NCBI GenBank assembly: GCA_029838195.1
Contig: JALGVJ010000009.1
Span: 1 to 64,000, forward strand
Origin: Promethearchaeota archaeon
GTDB lineage: Archaea > Asgardarchaeota > Lokiarchaeia > Sigyniarchaeales > SOKP01
Direction: 5' to 3'
DNA length: 64,000 bases
Below, one piece after another: positions 1 through 19,287 of this stretch. Position 1 is the stretch's first letter. Every line of letters begins with the position of its first letter. The notes under the pieces were generated by a model. The model had not been told where the DNA came from and made no database searches. It saw nothing but the letters and a program-made list of their open reading frames with translations. Made by a program: the position numbers and the translations under genes.

Positions 1-176
1 AATAATCCCGATCTCTTATCTCAGATCATCGTTTCCCGCCAACTTCAAGCCGATTTTATATATAAGAACCTTACTTTAATGGAGCGTGCCAGCTTACTGG
101 AACGGGGGGTTATAGCATGATATAATAAAAAAAGGGGGAATTTTATAATTTTTCATTCATTTATGAAATTACCCGG
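1..176 (+). mobile_element. Possible right end of an insertion sequence (IS1380-like terminus) interrupting the GTPase gene
   Basis: Open frame 1..120 (NNPDLL...ERGVIA*) enters from the window edge. Then ...TTATGAAATTACCCGG (161-176; CCGGGTAATTTCATAA on the minus strand) sits exactly where the GTPase similarity stops. Transposase and other end not visible. Confidence 0.3.
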
Positions 177-698
177 ATTCTCTTCTAACTTTAAAATCTC
201 GGTTATGATTTGAGTAAAGTATTCCATTGATTCATCATACCGATCCGGCGCTTGTACATCAATTACGTAGATGAGTAAATCTAAGCCGAAGAAATATTGA
301 TCGGGGGATTCTAAATATTCCCTTCGATGGTCTACTTGGCCTCCAAAATCCCAAATGTGAATCCGAGCATTTTCCGTCTTTATTTCTTGTCTATTTACAC
401 CTCGAGTGGGTTGTAATGAAGCAAGTTTTTCTATCCCTAATTTTCCGCCAAATTTGGATAAAATAGCAGTTTTTCCTGCGTTATTGAGCCCTAATACAAT
501 GATTTTCTGATCTTTTAATTCCTCCGCAACTGATTTTCGTTTAATTCTCTGAATGATAAGGCTAATCGTGATTGCTTTTTTTAATTTCTCTTCAAATTCG
601 GGGTCATTTTTTTTTATGAGGTTAATTAAAATCTTTTTCTTTTTGGAACGAGAAATTTTCTTAAAAGGATTTTCTTGATCTATTTCAGCAAATGACAA
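153..698 (-). pseudogene. Arf/Rag-like small GTPase, C-terminally truncated
   Basis: G1 GLNNAGKT, G2 PTRG, G3 WDFGGQ present. The ORF ends (EENPGNFINE*) before any G4/G5 motif. Confidence 0.7.
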
Positions 699-873
699 AA
701 CATCAAAAATATTATAATAAGAATAAGTTAAAAGAATTTTTAATGAATACTTTATTATAATTTTTTAAAATTTCATTATGAGTAGAGAAGTGGATTTTTA
801 AATTCAATTCCTTTGCGAGAATTAATTTTTGATAAGAAATATTTAATTTTTTTTTAATATTGTGTTTCCCAAA

Positions 874-1605
874 TTATTTTATTTTCAGTTTTTCTAATAA
901 GGAATCAAACTCGCTGAAATCAAAAGGTTTTAATATAAACCCATCCACTTGCGTTTCTTTTAATTTTTTCATAACTTCTGAATGTGGAATTGCGGTGATA
1001 AAGTAGATCGGGGTATCAATTGATCTTCTTTTTAATATCTTTCCCAATTCAGAGCCATCCATGTCCGGCAATAGAATATCAATTAAAATCAGTTTTGAAT
1101 TGTACTTTTCAATCTCTTCTAAACATTTTTTAGCTGTATTAACTCCTTTGCATCGCATGCCTTTTGTTTCAAAAAAATCTTTTAAGAGTAAGATGGTAGA
1201 GGCATTATCATCAACGATAAGAATGTCATAATCTTGGACTTGCGTTTCGGAACCAATGAAAATTTCATCAATTTTTCTCTCTAATTCCTTACTTTGATCA
1301 TGTATTTCTTTTATTCTAATTAATATATTAGGATCTATGTTTTCAGAATAATTCTCCAAGAGAATATGGGAGAGCCCATTTATAATGGTCAATGGTTCTT
1401 TTAATTCATGAGATACCTTATTAATATTCTTAAAAAGGGAGATCTTCAATGTATTTCCAATATAAAATTCTACAGCTTTACGGATGAATCTCGAAATGGA
1501 GGAAAAATCATTTTTATCAGCAAATTTTTGCCACTTTTTTTTAGTTTCTTCCGATACTAATAAAGTTATTCTTTCATTTTTCTTATCTTTTTTCATTTTA
1601 ATCAC
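874..1605 (-). CDS. RHH (CopG-like) - HisKA - receiver protein without HATPase domain
   Basis: N-terminal RITLLVSEETKKKW...SISRFIRKAV (ribbon-helix-helix pattern); H-box SHELKEPLTIING; REC with ILIVDD, LIDILLPDMDG, FITA, LKPF. Alternative ATG at 1596. Confidence 0.8.
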   Translation of the reverse strand: MIKMKKDKKNERITLLVSEETKKKWQKFADKNDFSSISRFIRKAVEFYIGNTLKISLFKNINKVSHELKEPLTIINGLSHILLENYSENIDPNILIRIKEIHDQSKELERKIDEIFIGSETQVQDYDILIVDDNASTILLLKDFFETKGMRCKGVNTAKKCLEEIEKYNSKLILIDILLPDMDGSELGKILKRRSIDTPIYFITAIPHSEVMKKLKETQVDGFILKPFDFSEFDSLLEKLKIK

Positions 1606-1968
1606 GAATAAGTCGGATGATTCACATGTTAATTATTTTAACTTAAGAGTAAACAATAATTTAGATCAATGGAAGATCTTTAAGTAATTCATTTTTTACC
1701 TCTTAGTGGTAATTATTTCAAATGGTTTTTTGAAATACTTCTCAAGTATTTATTTTTAAAACGTATATAATAATATCTATCGTTATTAAAATTATAAATA
1801 TTTCAATTGTGTTCCATTGATACTTATTTCATTGTAATAAATGATGAAGTGATTGATTTTTATTATAATATTTCCAATATAAATTTTTTTTTTTCCTAAT
1901 ATTTAAAAGGAAAGTCTATTATTAATAATAATAAAAAACGTTTAATAATAACGTTAAAAATCCTGACC

Positions 1969-2616
1969 ATGATGGAAGCAATTTACAACTCCTTTAAAGA
2001 CGAATTAATTAGATATCCCTTTTTAGTTATTGTTGGAAAGTATGACCAAATTTTAGGTCCACGAGCTTTATATTCTTCTATTGATATAAGAGATGAAGAA
2101 TTTATAAGAAATTTGTTGCGAGATGCATTGAATACTAAAAATAAATTTGTAATATTGGATTTTCAAAAGTTTTATGCACAAATATGTAAGATTGAAGTAG
2201 AAGATAAATCAGCTCGTGGAGGTAAACAATTATATGCGATCATTCTATTACGCCACGAAGAATATCCACTCCTTCCTATTCTTCATTTTAAAAAAATTGA
2301 GATGATGTTTCATCGCCTTGGAGCCGAACGCATACTTTCGGATGATTTAAATGGATTTAAGGAATTCATAGATCAAGTGGAAGAAATCTACATAAAAAAG
2401 GATGCTATTCTACCTTTAGAATCAATTAACCTTCAAATCCGAAGTGGCGTTAATACGATTCAAGGTTTTTGCGAACTCATTTTAGAAGAGAAACGAAAAC
2501 ATGGCAAAATTTCAGAAGAGACCGTGTTATCTTATGTTGAGTTAATGTTAGATTCTTGTAAAGATATCATTAAAGCATTAGAAGGAGATGATGTCAGCAA
2601 TTCAATTAAAAAATAA
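1969..2616 (+). CDS. uDENN/longin-like domain fused to His-less pseudo-HisKA (DHp) domain
   Basis: YDQILGPRAL and EDKSARGGKQLYAIILL resemble FLCN/SMCR8/C9orf72-type longin motifs. INLQIRSGVNTIQGFCELILE aligns with MSHELRTPLNAILGFSELLLE of the neighbouring kinase, with H>L. Confidence 0.6.
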   Translation: MMEAIYNSFKDELIRYPFLVIVGKYDQILGPRALYSSIDIRDEEFIRNLLRDALNTKNKFVILDFQKFYAQICKIEVEDKSARGGKQLYAIILLRHEEYPLLPILHFKKIEMMFHRLGAERILSDDLNGFKEFIDQVEEIYIKKDAILPLESINLQIRSGVNTIQGFCELILEEKRKHGKISEETVLSYVELMLDSCKDIIKALEGDDVSNSIKK

Positions 2617-2718
2617 AGGAAACTGGAGATACCTTTCTCGAATTCATTAAAAAATTATATCGAGATTAAAATTGTTTTCAAATTATAAAATTATTAAAAA
2701 AGGGGTCGGGAAGAGGAA

Positions 2719-3111
2719 ATGGAAAAAATCTTCATTTTAAGTAATGATGATATCACATGTAGAATTTATAGATTACTCTTGCATTTAGAAGGAGGTTATA
2801 CTATTATTGGTTATGAAAAAGATATAGCTAAGGCATTGAATTATCTTTCCACGATCGAAAGTGCTCCTGATATTATCTTTATTGATTTTAAAATGTCAAA
2901 TAGAGACGCCCTTTCATTACTTCAAAGTATAACTCAAAAATATCCGGATTTGAAAATCATGTGGATTAATCCTGATAAGAAAATTAAGGACCTTGCTTCA
3001 GAATTTAAATCATTATATTTAATCGAAGAACTGTATAAAAATCAAGATTTAATATTTTTCATAAGGGATGCTAGTAAAATGGACAAAAATGGATTAAAAA
3101 TTTCATCATGA
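2719..3111 (+). CDS. Atypical stand-alone receiver (CheY-like) domain
   Basis: PDIIFIDFKM retains the phospho-Asp; acidic pocket (ILSNDD) and KP motif are degenerate. Confidence 0.7.
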   Translation: MEKIFILSNDDITCRIYRLLLHLEGGYTIIGYEKDIAKALNYLSTIESAPDIIFIDFKMSNRDALSLLQSITQKYPDLKIMWINPDKKIKDLASEFKSLYLIEELYKNQDLIFFIRDASKMDKNGLKISS

Positions 3112-3243
3112 TAATGCGGTAATGATATTTCTTTTTCTTAAAATTACTGGATATTAACTTAAAAGTCAGAATAAAAGGAGGAGCGTGAATTATTTTTTGC
3201 TAATATATATATTATAATTTTCTCATGATATAAATAAAAGTAA

Positions 3244-5817
3244 GTGATTTATATAATGTCCTTGTTGAGAAAACTTGATAAAGAAAAAATATGGCGAGAT
3301 TTTAATTTAAAAATATTATTAATTGGAGAAAATAAGGGAGAGGTTGAAAATGTAAGGACATTATTAAAGAAAGTAGAAGACCTAAATTTCTCCATGACTC
3401 ATGTCTGTTCTTTAAATGAAGCAAGAACTCAATTAGATGAGAAAAATTTTGATATTATTCTTTTAGATTTAGGTCTAGAATCAGAAAAAGGACTTGAATT
3501 AATTAATAAAACAATCAAGTTAAAAAAAAACATTCCCATTATAGTTTTGGCAAATTTTTATGATGAAAATTTAGAACGTGCAGCAATAAAATTAGGTGTT
3601 CAGGATTATTTGATTAAGGAGCAATTAAATAGTTTCTATTTAATAAAATCAATTCATCATGGTATTGATAGAGAGAGATTAAAAAAACAAAATGAAATTT
3701 TAACAAAAAAAATTCAAGAAAACCAGCAAAAATTAAATTCTATAGTTCAGCAGAATGCTGATGGGATTCTAATAGTTGATAATAAAGGATATATTCACTT
3801 TATCAATTCTACAGCGGAATATTTATTATCAAAAGAAAAGAAGAATTGGATTGGAAAAAGATTTAATTATTCTATAGAAAAGGGAAGAACTACGGAAATT
3901 CATATCATTCATGATGATGAAACTATCACTGTTGCTGAGATTAAAGCGGTTGAATTACTATGGGAAGGAGAATTAATGAATTTAATAACACTTCGAGACA
4001 TTACAGAAATTAGAAAAACTGTACATGAAGTAAAAGAATTAGCTAAAATTTCTTCAAAATGTCCTTTCCCCATTATCAGAGTCAAACATGACAAAATTAT
4101 TTATTTAAATGATGCCGCAAAATTATGTTTTAAAGTCAATGTAGGGGAAAAAATACCTGTTTACTTTAAAGAGGGTATAAGAAAGGTAAGAGCAAGTGGC
4201 TCTATTGAAAAAATCGAAATCGAATACGATGGGCAATATTTTTTATTAATAATAAATCCCGACGATGATAAAGAAACCCTTATTATCTATGCCATGAATA
4301 TAACGGAAAAAGTATTGACCACAATTGCCTTAAAAGAATCAGAAATTAAATACCGTAGTTTAATTGAAAACTTAGATTCGGGGATTAGTTGCGTTAATAC
4401 AAACAACGTTTATACTGTCGTAAATGAAAAGGCCGCAGGGATATTGGGGGGAAAACCGGAAGATTTTATCGGTAAATCGATTTTTGAAGTACTACCTAAA
4501 GATTTAGCGGAACAAGAAAAGAGTATAAATGAAGAGATTTTTAGTAAGGGAAAGGGAATAATTTATGAAGAAATTATTAATTTAACTGAAGGAGAAAAAG
4601 TGTTTTTCATTAATAAACAACCTTTATTAGATGCTGAAGGAAAAATTGTTGGTGTACAGAATATATCCGTAGACATATCGGAAATCAAGAAATCCGAAAA
4701 AGAAGTTAAAAAGTTGGAGAAAACACTACAAGAAATGAATGCTCTAATTGAGCACGCTCCATTGGCAATATTTTTAATGGAAAAGAAAGGAAAAATCTTA
4801 CGAGCAAATGAAGCCGCTAAAGAACTCTTCGAGATGAATGATGAGATTCTCAATTACCATGTTCATGAGTTATTTGATAAGGAGTCGAAAGAGAAAATTG
4901 CAAAACACTATGATACCGATATATTTGATCTTCTTACACCGAATACGGTAGAAGCAGTAATTACTACGACTAAAGGGAAAAAGGTAGATGTAGAGATATA
5001 TTCTACAATCTTGAAAATTGCCGATAATTTAATCATCCAATCCTTCATATCCGATATTTCTGAACGGAAAGCTTTTGAACGGCATAGAGAAAAACTTTTA
5101 GATGAATTAATTACCTCCTTAGAATTCAAATCTAAATTTCTTGCGACAATGTCTCATGAATTACGTACCCCGTTGAATGCCATTTTAGGGTTCTCTGAAC
5201 TCTTATTAGAAGGTTCTTATGGAGCACTTAATAGAGAGCAAGAAGAGTACTTAAAAGACATTAGTTCAGCAGGAACTCACTTGTTAAATTTAATCAATTC
5301 CATTTTAGACATCTCAAAAATAGACGCCGGAAAATTTGAATTAAATATAGAACAAGTAAATTTATGCCGTATAATAAAAGAATCAGAAAATCTTGTACGT
5401 CCCTTGTATAGTAAGAAACATCTGAAGTTTAATATCGAGGGATTTCCTAAAGGTGCTCTTCTTTTCGTGGACCCCGTACGATTCAAACAAATTCTTTTTA
5501 ATTTACTCTCTAATGCTATAAAATTTACTCCAGAAGGGTCTATTACCCTAAAAGGAATTGAAAAAAAAGAGGTATGGGAATTTCGTGTTTCTGATACCGG
5601 TATAGGCATTGCTGAAAAAAATTTTAAAAAAATCTTTAAAGAATTTAGTCGTGTTGAAAATGAAAAAACAAGAAACATCGCGGGAGCAGGATTGGGCTTA
5701 GCGCTCACGAAAAGACTAATTCAACTTCATGGAGGAGAAATTTGGTTCGAAAGTGAATTAAATAGAGGCACGACTTTTTATTTTACCATCCCAAAAAGGA
5801 TGGGAAATGATGATTAA
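3244..5817 (+). CDS. Cytoplasmic hybrid histidine kinase (REC-PAS x4-HisKA-HATPase)
   Basis: DIILLDLGL receiver; PAS repeats ending RDITE/DISE; SHELRTPLNAILGF; NLLSNAIKFT, DTGIGI, GAGLGL; no TM segment. Confidence 0.95.
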   Translation: MIYIMSLLRKLDKEKIWRDFNLKILLIGENKGEVENVRTLLKKVEDLNFSMTHVCSLNEARTQLDEKNFDIILLDLGLESEKGLELINKTIKLKKNIPIIVLANFYDENLERAAIKLGVQDYLIKEQLNSFYLIKSIHHGIDRERLKKQNEILTKKIQENQQKLNSIVQQNADGILIVDNKGYIHFINSTAEYLLSKEKKNWIGKRFNYSIEKGRTTEIHIIHDDETITVAEIKAVELLWEGELMNLITLRDITEIRKTVHEVKELAKISSKCPFPIIRVKHDKIIYLNDAAKLCFKVNVGEKIPVYFKEGIRKVRASGSIEKIEIEYDGQYFLLIINPDDDKETLIIYAMNITEKVLTTIALKESEIKYRSLIENLDSGISCVNTNNVYTVVNEKAAGILGGKPEDFIGKSIFEVLPKDLAEQEKSINEEIFSKGKGIIYEEIINLTEGEKVFFINKQPLLDAEGKIVGVQNISVDISEIKKSEKEVKKLEKTLQEMNALIEHAPLAIFLMEKKGKILRANEAAKELFEMNDEILNYHVHELFDKESKEKIAKHYDTDIFDLLTPNTVEAVITTTKGKKVDVEIYSTILKIADNLIIQSFISDISERKAFERHREKLLDELITSLEFKSKFLATMSHELRTPLNAILGFSELLLEGSYGALNREQEEYLKDISSAGTHLLNLINSILDISKIDAGKFELNIEQVNLCRIIKESENLVRPLYSKKHLKFNIEGFPKGALLFVDPVRFKQILFNLLSNAIKFTPEGSITLKGIEKKEVWEFRVSDTGIGIAEKNFKKIFKEFSRVENEKTRNIAGAGLGLALTKRLIQLHGGEIWFESELNRGTTFYFTIPKRMGNDD

Positions 5818-5867
5818 AAATTCAAATTTATTTTAAAAATTGAGAGGGAGCCAGGAGCGATGAAAAA

Positions 5868-7874
5868 ATGGAGAAATATCAAAATTCTCACCAGCTTCAT
5901 GAAGCAGTAGAATTCTTATCGAAAAATTTAGACGAAATTGTATTAATTTTAGATAAGAATTTTATTATTGAATTTTATAATAATGGAAAACACGGGAAAG
6001 TTTTAGGATGGACGAGTAATAATTTAATTGGTACTTCCATTTTCGCTTTAATTCGAGAATTTGAAAATGCCCATAAAAATGAGAAAAAATTAAAAATAAG
6101 TTTGAATGAGGAATCCATTTCTCTGGTTCTTAAATTACAAGACAAAAAGGAAGACATTTTTACTTTAAATTTAAATGGAATTTCGCTCATGGTAAATAAA
6201 AACGAAAAAAAAGTATTGTTGATTGGCAAAATCATTCAAATAAATAAATTTAAAATTAATGAAATAAATCACCTTGAAAATGTTGAGAAACATTGGAACC
6301 AACAAATAAGAAAAACATTAGAACGAGAATTAAATAAAATGCATGTAGCTTTCGATAATGCTAAAGATCTCATGTTGATTTTAAATAGAAATGGAAAAAT
6401 TATAAATGTTAATGAAAAAGGGAAGGAAATTTTAGGATATGCAGGAGACCATCTTTTACAATTAAATCTAATGAGCCTAATCTCTCCAGAAAATAGTGAT
6501 TTGCTTAAAAAGAGTTTAGAGAATACGATAAATAATGGTACTCATGTGTTTGAAATTCCTCTCATTGATAGATATAAGAAGATTCATTTTTTTGAGATGC
6601 GCACTCTTCTCTTTTATATTAATCAAGAATTATTTATTTTAATGATAGGGAAAGATATTACAAGACAGTTTGAAGAATTATTGGAAATTAAAGAATCTGA
6701 ACTTAAATATCGCTCCATTTTAGAAAATATTAAAGAAGGGTATTATGAAATCGATTTAGATGGAAATTTTACTTTTTCAAATGATTTTCTCTTAAAGATA
6801 CTTCATTGTACAAAACAACAATTAAAAACCCAGAATATTTTTGATCTGTGTGATGATTCTCATAAAGTTTTCTTGAAAAATGCATTAGACTATGTAAAAT
6901 CGAAAAAAAGCCATTTAAAAAGCGTCCAAATTCAAGTGAACTTAATCAACGGAGCAAAAATTTTCTTAGAGCTGTCCATTGATTTGAAAATGGATGATAA
7001 TGAAAAAGTAATTGGATACCACGGCTTAATGAGAGATATAACAGAGCAGAAAAAAGCGGAAATTTTAGAAAAAAAATTCAAAGAAGAATTAGAAAAAGAA
7101 GTTGAATTACGCACAAAAGAACTTAATCAAGCTTTAGAGTTACAACAATATTTTCTAGATGAATTGGTAAAATCCTCTCAATTTAAAATGGAATTCTTAG
7201 CATCCATGTCTCATGATCTCAGAACCCCTTTAAATGCTATAATTGGATTTACCGATTTATTATTAGAACAGAGTTATGGAAAGTTAAATAAAGAACAATT
7301 AGAATTTTTAAAAGACATTAAATTTTCGGCCATGCATCAATTGGATATGATAAATAATATCTTAGATATAGCAAAAATTGAATCCGGGAAAACGACATTG
7401 AATTTAAGCTCGTTTTCTTTTAATAAGTTCATCAATCAAATGATCTCTAACTTAAAACCTCTCTGTGATGAAAAAAAATTATTTATTAAAGTAGAAGGAT
7501 TAAATAAGGAAGTGATAATTTTAGCAGATCCCATCAAATTTAAAGAAATTTTTTATAACCTTCTTAGCAATGCCATTAAATTTACTTTGAAGGGAGGAAT
7601 TACCATTATTTTTGAAGAAACTAATGATGAATGGGTTTTTAATGTAAAAGATACAGGTATTGGTATTGCCAAGGAAGATTATCCTAAAATTTTTAAAGAA
7701 TTTGAAAGAGGAAGTAATCCTTTGGTAAATTCTATTGAAGGTACAGGTCTGGGACTTTCTATAACAAAGCGGCTCGTTAACTTACACGGGGGTACTATTT
7801 CATTCAAGAGTAAAGTTGGCGAAGGAACGACTTTTACATTTACCATTCCCAAACCACCTCATAAAAAGCATTAA
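5868..7874 (+). CDS. Cytoplasmic PAS histidine kinase
   Basis: PAS repeats (KDITR, RDITE); SHDLRTPLNAIIGF; NLLSNAIKFT, DTGIGI, GTGLGL. Confidence 0.95.
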   Translation: MEKYQNSHQLHEAVEFLSKNLDEIVLILDKNFIIEFYNNGKHGKVLGWTSNNLIGTSIFALIREFENAHKNEKKLKISLNEESISLVLKLQDKKEDIFTLNLNGISLMVNKNEKKVLLIGKIIQINKFKINEINHLENVEKHWNQQIRKTLERELNKMHVAFDNAKDLMLILNRNGKIINVNEKGKEILGYAGDHLLQLNLMSLISPENSDLLKKSLENTINNGTHVFEIPLIDRYKKIHFFEMRTLLFYINQELFILMIGKDITRQFEELLEIKESELKYRSILENIKEGYYEIDLDGNFTFSNDFLLKILHCTKQQLKTQNIFDLCDDSHKVFLKNALDYVKSKKSHLKSVQIQVNLINGAKIFLELSIDLKMDDNEKVIGYHGLMRDITEQKKAEILEKKFKEELEKEVELRTKELNQALELQQYFLDELVKSSQFKMEFLASMSHDLRTPLNAIIGFTDLLLEQSYGKLNKEQLEFLKDIKFSAMHQLDMINNILDIAKIESGKTTLNLSSFSFNKFINQMISNLKPLCDEKKLFIKVEGLNKEVIILADPIKFKEIFYNLLSNAIKFTLKGGITIIFEETNDEWVFNVKDTGIGIAKEDYPKIFKEFERGSNPLVNSIEGTGLGLSITKRLVNLHGGTISFKSKVGEGTTFTFTIPKPPHKKH

Positions 7875-8101
7875 AAATCAGAAAATTTTCTATCCTCTAT
7901 TTAGCAAGTCTAGTCATGTAATGCTATACATTTCGTCCAACTTATAAAAAGGGCGAATTTAACATTACTTCTTATCTTTAGATTTACTTAAATTTAAATA
8001 GAAAAAATGGAAAGACTTAAGAAGTAACTACTTTTTATTAATATTAATTTCTTCTGTATAAGGCCGATATATCAATTCTGTGGAAAAAAAGGGTCAATTT
8101 A

Positions 8102-8733
8102 ATGACAAGTCGTAAAATTATAATGATTGGCCCTTCTGGGGAGGGAAAAACAACTATAAAGCATGTTTTTTTGAAAAAGCCAATCCACTTACTCTCTTGA
8201 AAAGCTTTTTTAATCCTACCCGGAGAATAGATACTTCCCTATATTCTTTTTTTAACCACATAATTAATATTTTCGATTTAGCAGATCAAAAAAATGAGAG
8301 CGGGTTTATTAAAGAAAAACGAGGTATTCAAGGAATCAGATACAATCTTTATCATCCATAATGTCCAAACTTCCTTAGAGAACATAATAAAATTTCTAAT
8401 ATATTTGATTAAAAAGCAAGAATTAAATAAAAATTTCTCCGATTGAAGAGGACTCCTTAAAACAGGAATTAAACATTACTTTAACTCTTGATTTATCAAA
8501 ACACAATAATAAAAGGGATACATGCCATGAGCTAAACTTACAAGAAACTAAGTTTGATTATTATATTTCAAGACTGGAACCATTAGGATTCATTAAATTC
8601 AAGAAACAAGATAATAATAAATTCTATTTTACGAAAAGAGGAGAATATTTTAGAAAAGGACGCGAAGAAGGGAAAAACCCCATTCTTCTCGAAACAGAAA
8701 AGAAAGATTTTGAGTTCTTGTATTCTTTTTTAA
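8102..8733 (+). pseudogene. Decayed Rag-like GTPase-wHTH gene
   Basis: ATG 8102 MTSRKIIMIGPSGEGKTTIKHVF, frameshift in a T-run, then EKANPLTLLKSFFNPTRR...IFDLADQ, second frameshift to EVFKESDTIF, stop. Later ELNLQETKFDYYISRLEPLGFIK...FTKRGEYF matches the wHTH of 8785..10317. Confidence 0.8.
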
Positions 8734-8784
8734 ATTTTAAAAAAATTTCAATAAGTATATGAATAAGAGATTATTGAAGAAAAT

Positions 8785-10317
8785 TCAAGTTAAATAATTT
8801 AATTGCAAGTCTTTAACTTTTTTGACTAAGTAAACTAATTCTTCATGATTTTCGTTTGTAATTGCTTTCATTAAATTTACTTTAATTTCTTTTATCTTTT
8901 CTAAAAGGAGTTCCATTTTTAACTTGATTTCATTCGATATATCATCTAATTCAGTATAAATCTTTTTTGCTTGTTTGATATCACACGTTTCCAAATTCGA
9001 TACCATGTGTTCATAGGTTTCATTTAATTTTAGCAACCATTCCCGCCCATGTTGATTAATTTCATCAAAATTTTCAAGAGAATGACTTTCCTTGAATTGG
9101 TCAAATTCTTCAGCATATATTTCAAAAAGATTCAAAAAGAACTCTTTTATTTTATTTTCTACGGATTTTAAATGAATATTGGGGTTTGTAAAAAGGGTAA
9201 TTGTATATTCACTGAAGCTGAAAATTTGCATTTTTAAATTCGAGCCCTTTAAATTAAATCCGGAAAGATCTTTGATGTTAACCTCTTTCGAAAATTTTTC
9301 TAAAGCACTAATGAACATTGGAATTAAATCAACATCAAAATCGGGTTTATTTTCAAAAAACACGTTATCATCAGACAAAAAAGATTTTAAAGCACCATCA
9401 TGGATTTCTGTGGTAAGAATCGTTATGCCATCCTTGTTTGCTATAAAATAACCAACAAAAGGAGGGATGACTTTTTCTTCAATTTCTAAGGTACTAACGC
9501 CTTCTTCTTTAGTCTTAATGAAAGATTTTAATGAAAATTCATTGATGATTCCTTTAAAATAGGTTTTCCCTTTATCTGATAACGTGATAATTTTCTCTTT
9601 TTGATCTCCAATTAAAGAAATGAATCCTAAATCTTTTAAAAATTCTAAAATTTCCTGTAATTTTTCTTTCGTTAAATTAAACCTATATTGTAATTCTCTT
9701 ATTGAAACAGCTAATTCTTGATCTACGTGATATAAGATTTCAATGGCTATTTTAAGTAAATTAAAATCAGCCTTTTCCGGAGATATTTCTTCCGTAACAC
9801 AGTGTTTTAAAATCTCAATAAAAATAGAAAATGTCTGAGTTAAATATTCCTTTTTTATACTAGTAAATGCCAATTTTACTTGCTGTTCATTTCTAATAGC
9901 ATGATTTACTTCTAATCTGAGTTGTTCCATTCTTTTCTTATCAATTAAATCAATTTTATGCATTAATAGAAAGATTATGGCGTGCGGAGATAATTTATTT
10001 CTAATTTGAATGATCTTTTTAATGAATTCTATAATCTCTCTGATATCTGTAGTTTTAGCATCAAAAACTACCATCATTACTTCAGTGTTCTGAAAAACTT
10101 GCTTATCTTCAGTTTCAAGCCATCTCTTATTTTCTTGCCCCGCAAGATCAAAAATTCCAACGTCATCTTTTAATCTTAAAATTAAGGATTCTATCCCATA
10201 AGTGGGTTTTAATGCGTGTTTCAATAATCTGACGGAATTTTCTCCTTCAAAAAATACTTTTCGTAGCGTAGTTTTTCCAGCTTCAGGGGGTCCTACAATA
10301 ACTATTTTTTTACCCAT
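8785..10317 (-). CDS. Rag/Gtr-like GTPase - winged HTH - longin-like domain - coiled coil
   Basis: GPPEAGKT, PTYG, DLAGQ, HKID, TSI; wHTH ELQYRFNLTKEKLQEILEFLKDLGFI...LSDKG; longin-like GYFIANKDG...DLIPMFISALEKFSKEV. Confidence 0.85.
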   Translation of the reverse strand: MGKKIVIVGPPEAGKTTLRKVFFEGENSVRLLKHALKPTYGIESLILRLKDDVGIFDLAGQENKRWLETEDKQVFQNTEVMMVVFDAKTTDIREIIEFIKKIIQIRNKLSPHAIIFLLMHKIDLIDKKRMEQLRLEVNHAIRNEQQVKLAFTSIKKEYLTQTFSIFIEILKHCVTEEISPEKADFNLLKIAIEILYHVDQELAVSIRELQYRFNLTKEKLQEILEFLKDLGFISLIGDQKEKIITLSDKGKTYFKGIINEFSLKSFIKTKEEGVSTLEIEEKVIPPFVGYFIANKDGITILTTEIHDGALKSFLSDDNVFFENKPDFDVDLIPMFISALEKFSKEVNIKDLSGFNLKGSNLKMQIFSFSEYTITLFTNPNIHLKSVENKIKEFFLNLFEIYAEEFDQFKESHSLENFDEINQHGREWLLKLNETYEHMVSNLETCDIKQAKKIYTELDDISNEIKLKMELLLEKIKEIKVNLMKAITNENHEELVYLVKKVKDLQLNYLT

Positions 10318-10337
10318 TATTCTTTATTTTTTTTTTT

Positions 10338-11630
10338 TTAATTATATATCGCATTAATTGTTAATTGTATTTTTCCTGCTAAATCTAATAATTCATTTGC
10401 ATTTAAAGCATCTGAAACGCAGATTAGATTTTTTAAATCATATTTAGAAATATTTAAATCATACATTATAATATTCAAGTTTTTTTTCCCGGAAATGATG
10501 AGATGTGAGATTTCATCATTATCTGTCATTTCTTTAAAGGTCTGATTTAATTGAATAATTAATTTATGTGAATGGTTTATTAAAGAAAGAGGAAAATCTG
10601 GAGTCATGGTTTGAATTACAATATTATTAAATTGATTAGTAATGAAACACATGACTTTTGGAAAGTCTTCAATGATATTATCAATAGAATCTTTTAAAGA
10701 AGCAGTCTGAATGGAGAAGCTGCTTAAGATTTCATAGAAAGAATTATAAAGTAAATATATTAAGTAGGGATAAATGCTTGTAAAATAAATTTTTATTTTA
10801 AAAAGACTTTTAATTTCTTTATATATCGATTTTAACTCTTGTTCACGAGATTCTTTATTAATTAAATCGATTTTATGAAAAAATAGAATTAATTTCGTTT
10901 TTAGATTTAATTTATCTATGATAGATTGAATGGTTTCTAGTTCTTTTATAACATCATATTTAATTGCCATCCAAGTTGGATAATCAACAATATAGATAAT
11001 GACATCAGCATTTTCAAACGCTTTTATCTGTTCTTCTGCATCATGTAATAGATAATTTAACTCTTGACCCGCAGAATCAAATACCCCTAATTCAAGATCG
11101 AACCAAGAATGAACAGATGGAATTAATCCACGGGTTGGTTCTAAAGGATCAGATAGTAATTTTTGAGGTGGCCATCCTTCAAATATTATTTTTGTGATGC
11201 TAGTTTTTCCTGTTCCAGCCCGTCCGAGAAGTAAAATTTTTTTAGATGAGGGTTTTGGTAAAATTATTTCGGCATTTTGTAAAAAAAAAGTTTTCCTCTC
11301 TTCTCCGGAGAGTTGAAATAAATTTTTAGCAAATTTTAAGAAATGTTCTTTAATTTTAAATAGATTTGGTTTTTCTTTTTCATGAAGCATTAATAATACT
11401 ATTTCATAACCAAAATCTGGCACGCGGGTTTTATCGCAATAAGAGAGGATAATTTTATTTTCATAACTAATTTCAATTAATTCTTCATCTTTTTTTACTT
11501 GTTCATAAGAATGAGTCATATAGATTTTATTTAACAACGCTAGATCAACATTAAATGTTCTTGGATACTGAAGTTCTAATACAGCCCCAATTTTAGAGTC
11601 CCAATTAAAAAGAGCAATGCCGCTTGACAT
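10338..11630 (-). CDS. Longin/uDENN-like - Rag/Gtr-like GTPase - roadblock protein
   Basis: N-terminal FNWDSKIGAVLELQYP; GRAGTGKT, PTRG, DSAGQ, HKID, TSIY; C-terminal roadblock-like domain. Confidence 0.85.
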   Translation of the reverse strand: MSSGIALFNWDSKIGAVLELQYPRTFNVDLALLNKIYMTHSYEQVKKDEELIEISYENKIILSYCDKTRVPDFGYEIVLLMLHEKEKPNLFKIKEHFLKFAKNLFQLSGEERKTFFLQNAEIILPKPSSKKILLLGRAGTGKTSITKIIFEGWPPQKLLSDPLEPTRGLIPSVHSWFDLELGVFDSAGQELNYLLHDAEEQIKAFENADVIIYIVDYPTWMAIKYDVIKELETIQSIIDKLNLKTKLILFFHKIDLINKESREQELKSIYKEIKSLFKIKIYFTSIYPYLIYLLYNSFYEILSSFSIQTASLKDSIDNIIEDFPKVMCFITNQFNNIVIQTMTPDFPLSLINHSHKLIIQLNQTFKEMTDNDEISHLIISGKKNLNIIMYDLNISKYDLKNLICVSDALNANELLDLAGKIQLTINAIYN

Positions 11631-11702
11631 TTTTTTTAATCTTTTTTTTATTTTATTTTAACCATACAATTATATTCATGTAATTTCATTAATTTAATAT
11701 TT

Positions 11703-11736
11703 TACCTATTTAAGAAATGTACCTATTTAAGAAATG
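11703..11736. repeat. Perfect 17-bp tandem direct repeat in a divergent promoter region
   Basis: TACCTATTTAAGAAATG x2 (11703-11719, 11720-11736). Confidence 0.9.
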
Positions 11737-11816
11737 CTGAGATTTATTAAGAGGGAATTTCTATTAATTTTTAAGATATTCTTATATAGAAAAAATTAAA
11801 TAGAAAGAGTGAAAAC

Positions 11817-12185
11817 ATGGGACGTAAAATATATATCATTGAAGATAATGAGAAAAATTTAAAATTATTTGTTGCTGTATTGAAAATCCTTCCAAATATC
11901 GAATTATTCACGGAAACTAGAGGAGATACCGGATTAGAATTAATAAAATCGGGAAATCCCGATTTGATCATTTTAGATATTCAACTACCAGAGAAGAGCG
12001 GGATTGATATCTGTAAAGAATTAAGGAGCATGGAAAAATTCAAGGAAATACCGATTATAGCCGTCACTTCCTTTGCCATGAAAGGAGATCGGGAGAGAAT
12101 CATGGAAGCAGGATTCACTGACTATGTATCCAAACCGATTAAAATTTCTGAATTTCGAGAATTGGTCCTTAATTTATTAAAATGA
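11817..12185 (+). CDS. Single-domain response regulator, DivK/CheY-like
   Basis: IIEDN, LIILDIQLP, AVTSFAMKGDRERIMEAG, SKPI. Confidence 0.92.
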   Translation: MGRKIYIIEDNEKNLKLFVAVLKILPNIELFTETRGDTGLELIKSGNPDLIILDIQLPEKSGIDICKELRSMEKFKEIPIIAVTSFAMKGDRERIMEAGFTDYVSKPIKISEFRELVLNLLK

Positions 12186-12330
12186 GCAGAAAGTTGTTAA
12201 TAGAAGGGGCATGGAAGTCTGAATTTTTTTAAATTTTTAACCATGATATATTTTTTTATCTTTTTTTTAACATGAACTTGAAAAGTATCAAATAACATAA
12301 TAAATATTATATAGTTGAAGTGTTGCTTAA

Positions 12331-13266
12331 TTGACAGAACAAAACTATAATGAATTAAAAAGGAAAGTTATATTAATCGGGCGTCCGGAAACGGGGAAAT
12401 CAAGCATTAAAAAAGTGGTTTTTGAGGGACAAGATCCCATGAGCCTTTTATCCGAGCCATTAGCTCCCACGAGAGGTTTTGAGCCCTCGGTTCATACTTG
12501 GTTTGATTTAACGATTGGGTTAATCGATACGTCGGGACAAGAGATTGATACATTTTTAACACGCTCTGAGGAGCAGCAATTGACTTTTCAAAATAGTGAT
12601 CTCATCATATATGTTTTTGATTATAATGGATGGCTAATTAAAAAAGAAGATATCTTTGAGGATTTGAACGTGATCGCTTCCATCCTACAAAATTTAAATA
12701 TTAATGCCAATCTTACATGTTTTTGTCATAAAATTGATCTAATAGAACAAAACATTAGAGAACAAGAGATTAGAGAAATTAAAAGTCAAATTAAAATACC
12801 GACATTTTTTACCAGTATCAAGCCAGAATTGTTATATCGATTATATGAGGCTTTTCATGAGCTTTTAACCATTTTTTCACGTGAATTTGGAAAGATAAAA
12901 AAGATCTTGGATGAGAAATTATCCGATTTTCCAAAATCATTGTTTTTCATAACTAATAAAAATAATAATATTATTGTCCAAACTTCTTCGAAAGATTTTA
13001 ATTTTAAAAACATTAATTATCTTCACTATTTAACGGCCATGTTAAATGTCACATTAGAGAAGATTCGAGCGAATGATAAGATCGACCATCTTATCTTGCA
13101 AACTCAAAAACATTATAATATCATTTTGAAATATTTAGAATTATCAGAGTATGACCTGAAGAATCTCATTTGTATTTCAGAGACCTTAAATTCAAACAAG
13201 TTGATTTGGTTAGTTGGAGAAATTTCACTTCAATTGAATAGAATGTATAAAATGGAAAACTCATGA
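12331..13266 (+). CDS. Rag/Gtr-like GTPase with C-terminal roadblock domain
   Basis: GRPETGKS, PTRG, DTSGQ, HKID, TSI; C-terminus clearly paralogous to 10338..11630 (FITN..NNIIVQT, YDLKNLIC). Confidence 0.88.
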   Translation: MTEQNYNELKRKVILIGRPETGKSSIKKVVFEGQDPMSLLSEPLAPTRGFEPSVHTWFDLTIGLIDTSGQEIDTFLTRSEEQQLTFQNSDLIIYVFDYNGWLIKKEDIFEDLNVIASILQNLNINANLTCFCHKIDLIEQNIREQEIREIKSQIKIPTFFTSIKPELLYRLYEAFHELLTIFSREFGKIKKILDEKLSDFPKSLFFITNKNNNIIVQTSSKDFNFKNINYLHYLTAMLNVTLEKIRANDKIDHLILQTQKHYNIILKYLELSEYDLKNLICISETLNSNKLIWLVGEISLQLNRMYKMENS

Positions 13267-13316
13267 AAAAACACTACCAGATGGCATTAATAGTGGGAAA
13301 CAAGGCACTCATTACA

Positions 13317-14621
13317 TTATTTTAATTTTCTTTTTAGATCCTTAAATTCTTGCATTTTTATCCGAATCAAATTTCTTTTTTCGATGAGTGAGAGCTTAGT
13401 TGAATTTAATTTTTCTTCCAATTTAGAACGAAATTCTTCAACATCCAAGTTCAAATCGAAAATATCTTTTAACAGGTCTTGTTCAGTGAATGTGCTTAAC
13501 TCCGCTACTTTTTTTTTTAACATTGGTTTCTTATACATATCAAATGTCGCGGTTCCTTGATTAATTTGGATATTCATGGGATCTAACAATCGTTCAATGA
13601 AATTTAGCAAGAAATCTTTTAAAACAGGTTTAAGATCATGAATCCATGCCAATCCATCTAATTTTTTTCGCTGTTCAATTCCTGGCGCTTGTCGTAAGAC
13701 ATTTGAGATAAGCATTTTCAGATAGCTTTCAGAATATAGCGGTTTAAAATTATCTGTTAAGCCCTCCAGAACATCTTTTGCTAAACTTTGAACTAGAACA
13801 TCTATGATCTCTGGGTATTCATAAAACATTCCAAATTTAAAATACGAATTGAGGAATTGTTCAATGGCTTTTTCCATTTCTTTATGACTAAGAGTGCCTT
13901 TTTTTATCAAGTATGTCTTGAGAACTCTTTCTAAAAGCGTGCCTCGAAAGGTGGCTTGATAATCTCCTAGTGTGCCTGAAATAGATGCCGATTGAGGTGA
14001 TTTTTTCTTTTTATCTTCTTTTCGAGAGTATAAAATATTTACATAATCTTTTACAATCACGCTTGAGAGACCAATTCTGAGAGTCATGATTTCAATTTTT
14101 AAGGGTTTATTGGTTGAAGTTTTAGGAAATTTATCATTATATTTATTTAAAATCTCTTCTAAACTCAAGGTCGCTACATAATCATTAAAGAAAATTTCAT
14201 ATAGAGCAGCAATTTCATATTCATCAACTTGTTCATTCAAAACGTCTCTCAAATAATTATCATAACGCAGAAAAAATCGAGATATGCAATCATCAATAGC
14301 CAATGCCAAATCATCGGCCGGATAATTAGCTTGTATGAGATATTTTTTATATTCAAGGCGAACTTTTTGAGCTCGCACCCATTCTAATATAAAGTCAAAA
14401 ATTCGCTTATTTAAGGCTAATTTTTTTTCAAAATATTTAAGAATTTCGAGGACTTCAAAATATGATGTACCGATGGCTTGATTCGTCAGGAATCTTGCTG
14501 CTAATTGTAATTTTGATAATTCCGGAAATTGTCGTTGCAAATATCGATAATATGTTATCAAGCGATCTTTATCAAGGGAATAAATCGGATCCTCCAATTC
14601 ATTTAAAGAAATTCTACTCAT
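13317..14621 (-). CDS. Hypothetical helical protein
   Basis: 434-aa ORF, 12 nt downstream of the 14634 ORF; no motif recognised. Confidence 0.7.
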   Translation of the reverse strand: MSRISLNELEDPIYSLDKDRLITYYRYLQRQFPELSKLQLAARFLTNQAIGTSYFEVLEILKYFEKKLALNKRIFDFILEWVRAQKVRLEYKKYLIQANYPADDLALAIDDCISRFFLRYDNYLRDVLNEQVDEYEIAALYEIFFNDYVATLSLEEILNKYNDKFPKTSTNKPLKIEIMTLRIGLSSVIVKDYVNILYSRKEDKKKKSPQSASISGTLGDYQATFRGTLLERVLKTYLIKKGTLSHKEMEKAIEQFLNSYFKFGMFYEYPEIIDVLVQSLAKDVLEGLTDNFKPLYSESYLKMLISNVLRQAPGIEQRKKLDGLAWIHDLKPVLKDFLLNFIERLLDPMNIQINQGTATFDMYKKPMLKKKVAELSTFTEQDLLKDIFDLNLDVEEFRSKLEEKLNSTKLSLIEKRNLIRIKMQEFKDLKRKLK

Positions 14622-14633
14622 GATAAGCCCATC

Positions 14634-15677
14634 CTAAGAAGTATTATCTAATAATAAACTAATATGATTTAAATCATCCTCCGTATTAATATTCCATCCT
14701 CGGGGTGAAAAATTGATATTAAAATCTTGTAAGTATTCAGTTAATGAAAGATCATTATCTAAAATATTTCTTATCTGCTTATGATAAAATCTCTTATTTC
14801 TCAATTCTCTTGAACTAGCATCATCAATGAGAGGGATTAAAAAACATCCAATACTTCTTTTAATACCCTTTTCTATTATAAAGTCCTCAAAATAAAGTAC
14901 CTCTTTTTCCTTTAAGGACAAATTTATTTGACGTATATTAATAAAAATTCCTTTTTTTTCAAAAAGAGCTAGCGTATCCTTCAATAAATTTTCATAGTAG
15001 TCCGGCAAAACCGAAAGAACATAAAAAGAAGGAATTAATTCTAAAATTCTCCTTCTCAAGGAATCTTCCGGTTCAATGGTATATAACGTAGAATGTTTTA
15101 TTCCTTGCCCTATCTTTCTTTCAGTTACAACCACGCAATAATAATTTTTTTTTTCTTTCCAATAGAGCTTCCTTGAAGAGCCAAGGTAATATTCAATTAA
15201 ATGCAGACCTCGTATTAATTCCTCCTTGATGAATTTTTCGCGGTTAAATTTCTTTCCCAACAATAATTGATTCATTTTTGTCCCTTGTAAGATGCTTGGA
15301 TGAATGTAATCCGTTATTTTTTTATAAATCTCTATTGGATCCTCAGTATAAGGCGAGCCAATTAATGCAAATAGATTTGTATTCATTCCGGGCGCCGATT
15401 CCATGGTCGAATTTAAAGCGAAAAAGGTTTGTAAAATGTCTGCTTCTTTAATTTCTTGTTGTTTTAATGAGAGAGAATATTCTATAAAATCAATTTTCCA
15501 GGCACCTTCTCTTGCTGAAGCGGCTGTTAGAAAAATAGGGCCTAAAAATTGAAAAGGAAGCATCTTTAACTGGTTCTTTTGTTCCTTCGAGAATTCTTTT
15601 TCGTGCTTGATCTCTTCAAAAATTAAATTAGATTCATCAGAAAAAAATAATGCTATAATCCAACTTGGCCTTTTCAT
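14634..15677 (-). CDS. Hypothetical protein
   Basis: 347-aa ORF, likely co-transcribed with 13317..14621; no motif recognised. Confidence 0.7.
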   Translation of the reverse strand: MKRPSWIIALFFSDESNLIFEEIKHEKEFSKEQKNQLKMLPFQFLGPIFLTAASAREGAWKIDFIEYSLSLKQQEIKEADILQTFFALNSTMESAPGMNTNLFALIGSPYTEDPIEIYKKITDYIHPSILQGTKMNQLLLGKKFNREKFIKEELIRGLHLIEYYLGSSRKLYWKEKKNYYCVVVTERKIGQGIKHSTLYTIEPEDSLRRRILELIPSFYVLSVLPDYYENLLKDTLALFEKKGIFINIRQINLSLKEKEVLYFEDFIIEKGIKRSIGCFLIPLIDDASSRELRNKRFYHKQIRNILDNDLSLTEYLQDFNINFSPRGWNINTEDDLNHISLLLDNTS

Positions 15678-15807
15678 TATTTGCGATAAAATTTTTAATG
15701 ATTTTAATTGATTTCTGCTTTTCTATTAATTCTTAAACTATAAATCACATTTCTTCCATTTAAATATTGTGGTTTCTTCCAGGAATTTTTTCTCAAGAGG
15801 GAAGAAA

Positions 15808-16197
15808 TTAAAACAAAATGAATGCTTTCAAGAGGAAGGATTCTAACTTTAATTGTTTTAATAATTGCCAATTATTAAAGAGATAATGAAAGATTTTGCC
15901 TTTTTTAAAATAAGAGAGCGTAAGATCTTCTCCTCCATGGAATTTCATGATGTCAATGAGTTTTAATAGAATTTTTATCAAATAATTCTTGAATAATAAC
16001 GGATCGCAAGAAGAAGGATCTATTTTAATAATATTAATGCCCACTTCTCTCTTGTATTTAATTTTCCGAAGTTCACGAATATTTGTTTCACTATCATTTT
16101 TCATCTCATTAAAGAATCTTTCAATATCTACATGAATTTCATCTTGTAATTCTCTTGAGAGGAAAGATTTGAATATATTGTTAACCAGATTGAACAA
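15808..16197 (-). CDS. Hypothetical protein, possibly the 3' remnant of a longer gene
   Basis: TTG start; the upstream in-frame sequence looks coding-like but has TAA/TGA stops. Confidence 0.45.
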   Translation of the reverse strand: MFNLVNNIFKSFLSRELQDEIHVDIERFFNEMKNDSETNIRELRKIKYKREVGINIIKIDPSSCDPLLFKNYLIKILLKLIDIMKFHGGEDLTLSYFKKGKIFHYLFNNWQLLKQLKLESFLLKAFILF

Positions 16198-16623
16198 TTG
16201 TCATGCATCTTGCTCGGTGCCACCCGAAAGCATTATTTAATGATTTTCATTATACGCCCGACATAGATACATCCTAATTACCTGATCTTTCTCAGGCTTC
16301 ATCATTTCACACTCTATTCCATGGATAATTAATCGTAATGATCCACCACATCGTTCGAAAACGATACAATGGGATATTATTTCATAAAAACATGAATCAT
16401 CAAATCATGAATCATATGAAATCTGTAGAATCGTGATATTTTTTTTGTTAATCAGAAAATTTGAGAGTCAATCCTTATCAACCAACCATTCCGCACTCAA
16501 TAACGCACTTATTTTTAAGAATATTTACTCATTCTATTCCATGCGTACATTAAATATTGTTCAAGAACAAAAAGAAAAGAAAAAAAATCATTCAATCATG
16601 AATTGGTCTTTCAATTTGAAAAT

Positions 16624-18027: not shown

Positions 18028-18334
18028 ATTAGATGCATTCTTTTTTTATTTTTTCAATGATTAATAATTACATTTTCATTAGTTTAGAAGATATTTAAAT
18101 TTTTTTAAAAATTTTATTGAAAGCGGTCAATGAAAGGCAATGGAAATGATTTGTTGATTAATATATTACATGAGTAAGAACCAGAATTATCGAATTTTCA
18201 TGCTATATTTTTCAATTTTTTACAATAATTTTTTTCATCTTTAGTTCAGAAAAAGTTAAATAAGAAAGGAGGTTCCAATATAAATAGCTAAATAGCTAAA
18301 AAATTTAAAAAATCATAATTAGAGGTGTTATTTC

Positions 18335-19069: not shown

Positions 19070-19287
19070 CCTATTTCACATTTAAGTTTTTTTTTTCCCT
19101 TTTAAAAATGAATTATTTTCATTTTAGGAGACATGAAGGTATTCAATAAATAATCTTTAGATTCTTCTCAAATGATATTAATAATGGTAAATTGTGGAGA
19201 AGAAAAAGAAATAAAGGTTCAAGCATGGATAGGGCTTGATACCCGAACAATAAGGAACCATGAAACAAAAAATAAAAATAAAAAAAA

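Follow-up and report, generated by a model that had tools for sequence, protein, structure and literature searches.

The first 64 kb of contig C84 of a Promethearchaeota archaeon (GenBank contig JALGVJ010000009.1, positions 1 to 64,000; this whole stretch is here called the window) opens with an island at 153-13266, of ~28% GC, in which every credible gene encodes either a two-component signaling part or a small GTPase. This reading rests on a listing of open reading frames (ORFs) combined with Pfam, which gave no further credible ORF in the interval and agrees on this point with the first-pass annotation made from the sequence. The genome (G000) comprises 4.5 Mb in 94 contigs, and relatives of the island proteins come from metagenome-assembled genomes labeled Promethearchaeota, Promethearchaeia or Lokiarchaeota. 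Our subject is the possible link between the two gene classes, above all through a protein of 215 amino acids (aa), here called the adaptor, in which a longin domain is followed by a histidine-less version of the helical hairpin (DHp) that carries the phospho-accepting histidine in kinases. The features are as follows.

1-174, no strand: end of a mobile element, with a terminal inverted repeat at 142-174 and an 8-bp target duplication at 175-182.
153-698, minus strand: Arf/Gtr1_RagA G domain that ends after G3 (Arf 76 bits, Gtr1_RagA 56 bits).
874-1605, minus strand: HisKA-receiver protein without ATPase domain (HisKA 25.4 bits, Response_reg 75.6 bits).
1969-2616, plus strand: the adaptor, longin plus His-less DHp, 215 aa (Folliculin 17.4 bits, cut-off 23.3).
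2719-3111, plus strand: degenerate stand-alone receiver (28.8 bits, cut-off 30.2).
3244-5817, plus strand: soluble hybrid kinase, REC-PAS-PAS-HisKA-HATPase_c by Pfam, 857 aa.
5868-7874, plus strand: soluble kinase, PAS-PAS-HisKA-HATPase_c by Pfam, 668 aa, 50 bp 3' of the hybrid kinase gene.
8099-8759, plus strand: pseudogene of a Rag gene for a ~300-aa protein of G domain plus winged helix (wHTH), recognized by homology in three frames and by stops.
8785-10317, minus strand: Rag-like GTPase, 510 aa (Gtr1_RagA 66 bits).
10338-11630, minus strand: Rag-like GTPase, 430 aa, 20 bp upstream of the 510-aa gene (Gtr1_RagA 79 bits).
11817-12185, plus strand: intact DivK/CheY-like single-domain receiver, divergent from the 430-aa Rag gene (83 bits).
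12331-13266, plus strand: Rag-like GTPase, 311 aa (Gtr1_RagA 72.5 bits).

The inventory drawn up in the first-pass annotation was recovered, with two soluble PAS kinases, two receivers, one HisKA-receiver protein, one longin joined to a His-less DHp, and three intact and two broken GTPases. All island products look soluble, with a maximum 19-residue hydropathy of at most 1.27 against 2.7-3.6 in neighboring membrane proteins.

The adaptor belongs to a family of 295 members, all annotated as hypothetical and none carrying a Pfam domain. An AlphaFold2 (AF2) model built from a 29-sequence alignment (mean predicted local distance difference test score, pLDDT, 86.5) places a longin domain at 15-148 and a helical hairpin at 149-205, with helices at 149-178 and 183-205. 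Fold comparison matched the longin to NPRL2 (9v0j_A; Z 12.1, root-mean-square deviation [rmsd] 2.9, 132 residues aligned), to a Loki longin (8yqg_B; Z 11.4) and to FLCN (6nzd_H; Z 10.7), with Npr2 and FLCN ranging from 10.3 to 11 and generic longins at Z ~10; an Atlas search agrees with these matches. L29-G30-P31 is invariant in the 29 adaptor sequences, and strand 2 of the model begins at residue 30. A GP motif at the start of the second strand, beside the arginine finger, has been described as specific to those longins that act as GTPase-activating proteins (GAPs) (PMC12290439). R83, part of an A-R-G motif, is present in at least 90% of the sequences and lies in the beta4-beta5 loop between strands 68-78 and 86-96; it is a candidate arginine finger.

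The hairpin aligns with a profile of 16 HisKA segments from the same genome (hhalign probability 75%, E 2.6e-5, 57 columns), compared with E 0.12 for the Pfam HisKA model alone. Leu155 occupies the position of the phospho-accepting histidine, and Leu or Met stands there in nearly all 29 members, the histidine being kept only in P0112 and in the divergent paralogue at locus L034. As modeled, the adaptor is a GAP-type-looking longin physically fused to a kinase hairpin without its histidine. The longin-pseudo-HisKA architecture proposed earlier is upheld by the AF2 model, the fold matches and hhalign; of the longin/DENN adaptor that had also been proposed, the longin survives, while no DENN domain was found in the adaptor, whose C-terminus is the DHp hairpin in the model and by hhalign. 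As a side observation, the L034 paralogue (L034:1902-2528, in G043:C133) is 32% identical to the adaptor, keeps the phospho-histidine (SHHVRAE) and lacks A-R-G; it may represent a stage between genuine HisKA proteins and the dead hairpin.

The three intact GTPases score 66-79 bits with Gtr1_RagA (cut-off 22), and all carry HKIDL and FTSI, which align to HKMD and TSIWD of RagA. Their best sequence matches in the PDB are RagA/Gtr1 (E 4e-13 and 3e-12); the 311-aa protein matches RagA at E 4e-13, and its phmmer alignment to Gtr1 reaches residue 253. The earlier assignment as Rag-like with HKID/TSI signatures is thus borne out by Pfam, by PDB sequence search and by fold. The AF2 model of the 510-aa protein (pLDDT 71.7) has a G domain at 1-177, a winged helix at 185-260, a longin/roadblock-like domain at 287-411 and a coiled coil at 417-508, and 14 of its 15 top-scoring chains are eukaryotic Rag/Gtr proteins, the other being an Asgard RagA-like protein (8yl2_B), at Z 19-22.6 against at most 18.7 for Arl, Arf and Rab. 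Comparison of the 287-411 domain with the C-terminal domain of Gtr1 aligned 267 residues over 1-404, but with an rmsd of 18.5, and a feature search of the ESM Atlas, using the last 336 residues of this protein, returned only an unnamed Promethearchaeota cluster (0.78).

The 430-aa Rag adds an N-terminal domain of ~125 aa and a C-terminal domain of ~135 aa. By hhalign, the N-terminal domain matched neither the adaptor longin (0.3%) nor the roadblock profile of the genome (0.1%); the C-terminal domain of the 430- and 311-aa Rags has no Pfam family and reached 1% against the Robl_LC7 profile of the genome. Pfam gave no Robl_LC7 or DUF742 in the island, and no Robl_LC7 on the whole contig. The 311-aa Rag is paralogous to the 430-aa protein but lacks its N-terminal domain; it was seen only in this genus, with a 65% identical orthologue in the sister species G001. 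The order of the 430/510-aa pair is kept in L022, L025 and L031 and, from G001, in L036, an adjacency that would suit the obligate heterodimers formed by paralogous Rag/Gtr GTPases. The winged helix of 510-type proteins has a net charge of -4 to +6, and the C-terminal region of the ~295-aa relatives one of -1 to +9, values that neither support nor exclude DNA binding.

Among the two-component proteins, the receiver at 11817-12185 keeps D54, T84 and K106 and is 57-75% identical across genera. The receiver at 2719-3111 keeps the phospho-accepting Asp and has lost the conserved Thr and Lys; its relatives, 27-36% identical, lie at three related loci (L021, L023, L034). Both PAS kinases have intact H-boxes (SHELRTPL, SHDLRTPL) and HATPase_c matches of ~100 bits. 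The protein at 874-1605 has an intact H-box (SHELKEPL) and an intact receiver part, with orthologues 40-60% identical in G001, G011 and G026, and its N-terminus follows a conserved ribbon-helix-helix (RHH)-like pattern. We did not retain the RHH reading of this protein, which is below threshold (RHH_1 E 0.012) and matches one of four orthologues, so that only the HisKA and receiver parts of the RHH-HisKA-REC protein first described stand. The RHH is below threshold and the winged helix near neutral in charge, and the RHH/wHTH DNA-binding outputs that had been suggested are at most putative. Separately, the genome encodes three more HisKA-receiver paralogues of this protein without an ATPase domain, at C23:47829-48362 (plus strand), C23:48576-49103 (minus strand) and C92:109824-110339 (plus strand); the two on C23 converge, their ends being separated by ~215 bp, and in the C92 copy Gln takes the place of the His (ISQKLKRPL).

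Whether such a block could arise from copy number alone was addressed within the genome and across genera. The genome holds 21 receiver matches, ~23 kinase ATPase matches, ~64 small GTPases and 15 strong Rag-like genes. Of the 15 Rag-like genes, five have a two-component gene within 3 kb where 0.5 would be expected, and four of these five are in the island; when all small GTPases are counted, 5 of 64 do so where 2.1 would be expected (p ~0.06), and outside the island 1 where the expectation is 1.8. Taken alone this within-genome permutation test is weak and unpersuasive, resting as it does on essentially one cluster, and conservation across genera is for that reason the decisive evidence.

Single-copy orthologues of the adaptor, 49-76% identical, occur in 27 of 61 relatives. 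We compared 14 loci around them, and the counts that follow use the 12 with at least 10 kb of context, from ~10 genera. PAS kinases of the 3244-7874 type (g05/g06) are present in all 12, with hybrid-kinase orthologues 41-57% identical; the 153-698 type GTPase (g01) in 10; the DivK-like receiver (g10), the 430-type Rag and the Rag of G domain plus winged helix (G+wHTH Rag) in nine each; and the 510-type Rag in seven. Gene order inside the island is shuffled between genera, and the genes flanking it in the window (13317-20394) found no match in the longer loci outside the same genus. In five genomes from five genera, the 20 kb around the adaptor gene, ~0.5% of a genome, hold 6 of 19, 4 of 16, 4 of 15, 5 of 21 and 2 of 19 Gtr1_RagA matches. 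The G+wHTH Rag gene lies ~100 bp or less downstream of the adaptor gene on the same strand in 10 genomes from eight genera, and within 11 kb in four more; it is present in 14 of 27 genomes with the adaptor against 3 of 34 without. Retention of these families at 40-60% protein identity, with the flanks lost, is the pattern of a functional neighborhood as far as sequence comparison can define one, and copy number alone does not account for the block, since the same families recur at adaptor orthologues and the flanks do not. Gene content is conserved across genera and not peculiar to this genome, so that a gene order unique to this genome, which the first-pass annotation had named as refuting its reading, is not what the comparison gave; adjacency beyond copy-number chance, which it had also named as a check, stands across genera, but within the genome it comes down to essentially one cluster. 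In a phylum-wide sample of 301 genomes, the adaptor family was found in 30, which belong to only two families of one order.

A contact across the two gene classes, a further check named in the first-pass annotation, is predicted between the adaptor and the DivK-like receiver, as a model result only. We predicted the complex of two adaptor copies with this receiver, alongside three controls, and obtained a score of 0.70 for the adaptor dimer with the receiver against 0.00 for the best control; 58 of 80 solved complexes and 2 of 110 mismatched pairs attain that mark of 0.70. Three runs had at least 75% of contacts in common, with partner pLDDT of at least 84. In the predicted interface, helix 1 and the beta5-alpha5 loop of the receiver meet residues 154-173 and 192-196 of the adaptor DHp, the adaptor contacts coincide with the invariant R158, T163, I164, G166 and F167 and the nearly invariant N162, and the receiver is predicted to place its active site on the position of Leu155. 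As a model, this complex is evidence of compatibility, not of binding.

A second arrangement of the same kind lies elsewhere in the genome. At C72:88019-90133 an ArsR gene, a gene for a 175-aa Arf/Rag-like GTPase and a gene for a receiver fused to a longin-like domain stand together:

C72 cassette in locus L035 (G000:C72:86000-91000): three genes at 2020-2931, 3233-3760 and 3799-4134 of the locus, all minus strand.

The C-terminal half of the receiver fusion contains WDDVYGP and KRG, which align weakly (E 0.0026) to the GP and Arg motifs of the adaptor, and no kinase gene is adjacent to the cassette on the side examined. Judged by its sequence, this receiver-longin protein is of a published type, and it speaks for a signal that passes from the receiver through the longin to the GTPase.

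Both broken GTPases have intact counterparts in relatives. The pieces at 8099-8759 are spread over three frames with internal stops and, relative to the intact G001 orthologue, lack residues ~121-191 (~70 codons, with G4/G5). A look for RNA runs that contain the stretch listed none. The Logan contigs of the DNA runs are short and of low depth only, but one of run X1 is identical to 7692-8399 without a single difference, which makes an assembly slip in the pseudogene unlikely. G001 has an intact wHTH-Rag gene at the same position and is colinear from there through the 510-, 430-, REC- and 311-type genes and three unassigned ORFs.

The other broken gene, at 153-698, is the N-terminal half (G1-G3) of a GTPase gene cut by an inserted repeat element. 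Its relatives are 415-496 aa long, homology ends at ...LKLEENP, and the true gene part ends at ~175. The target duplication reads GGATTCTC at 175-182, or GAGAATCC on the gene strand, and GAGAATCC borders both junctions. The terminal inverted repeats of the element, ~33 nt long, read GGGTAATTTCAYAAATGAATGAA..AATTATAAA, and the 33-nt terminus recurs, inverted, at C34:82-115, the start of that contig, and also at C39:36327-36357. Portions of the element lie at window positions 1-182, C34:1-123 and C39:36251-36450, with only the two ends assembled, and Logan contig depth is 6-18 in bin 1-300 and 0-0.6 in bin 301-600. The missing 190 C-terminal residues are encoded at C34:103-675 (66% identity to residues 238-424 of the G001 orthologue), and excising the element in silico joins the two GTPase halves in frame. 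The contig break is caused by the mobile element, and the island continues on C34, because the C-terminal half of the GTPase stands there, followed by the orthologue of the kinase that neighbors the split GTPase in G001. This adds six more two-component genes, up to ~11.5 kb:

C34:103-11525, in order: GTPase C-terminal half, 732-aa kinase, receiver, 376-aa kinase, four unassigned ORFs, receiver, hybrid kinase-receiver, double receiver, 432-aa kinase.

Contig C83 had been considered as the neighbor of the window start and was dropped, the true neighbor being C34; its 3882 bases hold three receiver matches, one kinase ATPase match and a few small unassigned ORFs.

At the other end, the island is adjoined by three ORFs without a Pfam family at 13317-16197 (minus strand; 434, 347 and 129 aa), followed by an MFS transporter gene. 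Only the sister species G001 has conserved counterparts of the three, at 50-63%; the third of them is 281 aa long there. A T-rich 26-mer, TGAYATWTTTTTTWATCTTTTTTTTA, covers the start of the 430-aa Rag gene (11625-11650) and recurs at 88% identity upstream of the 311-aa Rag gene (12244-12269), a repetition that may be due to chance in AT-rich DNA. Direct and inverted repeat scans of 1-13400 for shared operators gave only paralogy and AT-rich noise, and Rfam and ARAGORN found nothing in the contig start (1-400).

On balance, and with moderate confidence, we propose that the island is a lineage-specific conserved neighborhood of Lokiarchaeia (Promethearchaeia) in which a His-Asp phosphorelay would be functionally coupled to Rag-family GTPases via a dedicated adaptor, a reading built on gene neighborhoods and predicted structures. 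Soluble PAS kinases (3244-7874, with more on C34) would sense an intracellular cue and phosphorylate the receiver at 11817-12185 and probably also the HisKA-receiver protein. The receiver would then dock on helix 1 of the dead DHp of the adaptor, where binding rather than phosphotransfer would be the signal, because a dead DHp cannot exchange phosphate. Docking would alter how the dimeric longin module acts on a neighboring Rag-like GTPase, most likely as a GAP via Arg83 beside the GP motif. The first target in most relatives would be the co-operonic G+wHTH Rag; here, with that gene dead, the targets would be its 510-aa paralogue or the 430- and 311-aa Rags. Possible GTPase outputs are roadblock-mediated dimers, and the winged helix serving as a DNA binder or scaffold.

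Several observations weigh against this proposal. The margin of GAP longins over generic longins in structural comparison is only ~2 Z units; the equivalence of R83 to R164 of FLCN or R78 of NPRL2 is putative; the Folliculin Pfam model reaches 17.4-18 bits on the adaptor, below its cut-off of 23.3, NPR2 gives no Pfam match on it, and the family profile finds nothing meaningful among PDB sequences (best E 0.13). Eukaryotic GAP longins are heterodimers with a second longin subunit, and none was identified here. The wHTH-Rag is displaced in this genome and in its sister genus, and dead in the former, and the adaptor is nevertheless conserved there (87% and 76% relatives), for which reason its essential partner may be something else. 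Two genomes of genus g9 have the adaptor and kinases without 430- or 510-type Rags within 20 kb, and related genomes are non-independent samples. None of the three docking controls was another receiver, and the docking pass may reflect likeness to solved complexes, because the interface is the textbook kinase-regulator mode.

Among other explanations, one leaves the two-component link of this proposal unchanged and makes the longin a nucleotide-exchange factor or a passive Rag platform, in the manner of Ragulator, Mon1-Ccz1, TRAPP or MglB. In its favor, exchange or platform roles prevail among longin/roadblock modules (PMC3747258, PMC12290439), generic longins come close to GAP longins in score (Z ~10 against 12), and the Folliculin model stays below its cut-off. 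We nevertheless consider this version unlikely, given the invariant GP motif, which PMC12290439 records in GAP longins and not in FNIP2, NPRL3, adaptins, TRAPP or DENND, and the conservation of Arg83 in all but the divergent paralogue.

The wiring could also run in reverse, with the dead DHp sequestering the receiver, or mixing with kinase DHp domains, and the nucleotide state of a longin-bound Rag controlling flux through the phosphorelay. A His-less DHp can only bind and not pass phosphate, the predicted complex has the active site of the receiver over Leu155, and the HisKA-receiver protein and several kinases offer further DHp partners, all of which would fit such a sink. The GP motif and the conserved Arg are, however, hard to explain if the longin merely senses the state of the GTPase, and the C72 receiver-longin fusion points to a flow from receiver to longin; we give this alternative a small chance.

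That the locus is simply a hot spot of duplicating, co-regulated signaling genes, its kinases and GTPases serving separate pathways, is improbable in our view: many members are paralogues possibly arisen in place (repeat families D1, D2, I1 and I2), small GTPases taken together show no genome-wide excess in the vicinity of two-component genes and the order within the island is shuffled between genera, but the adaptor covalently joins a GTPase-regulator fold to a two-component fold, membership is kept in ~10 genera at 40-60% identity with the flanks lost, receiver docking is predicted, and an independent cassette of receiver-longin and GTPase exists in the same genome.

The proposed coupling would extend several published observations, which also make the earlier statement that nothing of the kind had been described too strong. 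Liu et al. (10.1101/2020.10.19.343400) reported many NPRL2-like longin/two-component fusions in Asgard archaea (section 10, Fig. 5c) and proposed growth control centered on two-component systems together with eukaryote-like regulators, and PMC12290439 described Asgard longins with GP motif and Arg finger and raised the question of whether these pair with Rag or Arf GTPases. These longins share with the adaptor a GAP-type appearance and, in the published fusions, the joining to a two-component module; the published surmise is also alike, namely two-component input to folliculin/GATOR1-like regulators that may have Rag or Arf GTPases as partners. The adaptor differs from the published fusions in that a His-less DHp hairpin takes the place of their receiver or full kinase, and in its conserved neighborhood, where specific Rag paralogues, PAS kinases and a DivK-like receiver stand beside it. 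In the searchable literature we found no description of the conserved neighborhood, the His-less DHp fusion or the co-operonic Rag partner, and no paper on Asgard small GTPases together with histidine kinases and response regulators.

In actinobacterial conservons, a sensor resembling histidine kinases is already coupled to a small GTPase together with a roadblock protein (PMC13343842, PMC4316618), and these and related G protein systems (CvnA-D, MfpB-D; PMC13343842, PMC13621833, PMC4316618) resemble the island in combining, at operon level, a kinase-type sensor, a Ras-superfamily GTPase and a regulator of the longin/roadblock class. Conservons consist of a membrane CvnA, a stand-alone MglB-type roadblock, a DUF742 protein and an MglA-like GTPase; the island, in contrast, has soluble PAS kinases, true receivers, Rag-type GTPases and a longin-DHp fusion. 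Asgard Rag-like GTPases themselves (PMC10933270; PDB 8yl2, 'LokiRagO'; 8yqg, Loki Roadblock-Longin) share the kind of G domain, HKxD and TSI with those of the island, and likewise show longin/roadblock fusions and adjacent paralogue pairs (PMC10933270); we found no publication for the deposited LokiRag structures. Tran et al. (PMC10933270) reported that their role is unknown and that their genes are generally not in operons with regulators. Unlike that pattern, a regulator-like longin and two-component genes are fixed neighbors here, and a winged helix and a coiled coil are further features of the 510-aa form.

Likeness to GATOR1 (NPRL2-NPRL3-DEPDC5) and FLCN-FNIP extends to the longin fold (Z 10.3-12.1), the GP motif, the conserved loop Arg and the presence of Rag GTPases alongside. 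The island differs in having no DENN, second longin subunit, TOR kinase, Ragulator or lysosome; its input would be His-Asp signaling, and sequence homology to these complexes is not significant. A full prokaryotic counterpart of Rag-GATOR1/FLCN, in which a phospho-receiver controls a dimeric longin GAP (Arg83) and thereby the nucleotide state of paired Rags, with a transcriptional or scaffolding output through the winged helix, seems doubtful to us. As for the suggestion that the island might be a precursor of Rag nutrient signaling, this is unlikely for the adaptor, whose restriction to two families of one order (30 of the 301 genomes) marks its system as a lineage-specific variant and not as an ancestor of the eukaryotic one.

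Asgard archaea encode dozens of Rag-, Arf- and Rab-like GTPases together with longin/roadblock proteins, whose partners and roles have been obscure because the genes are usually scattered (PMC10933270). The main value of the island is a short list of testable protein pairs for such orphan GTPases: the block names as candidate partners a longin adaptor, a co-operonic wHTH-Rag, two to three Rag paralogues, one receiver and two PAS kinases. Each of these proteins looks soluble and is of a size suited to reconstitution in vitro. Should the coupling fail, the block would still illustrate clearly how a pseudo-kinase hairpin can be turned into a docking module. A coupling that holds would show how a eukaryote-type GTPase switch was wired to prokaryotic sensing, and if the likeness to GATOR1 and FLCN reflects a true counterpart, Rag GTPases and GAP-type longins would have been paired before eukaryotes, driven by His-Asp signaling rather than by TOR.

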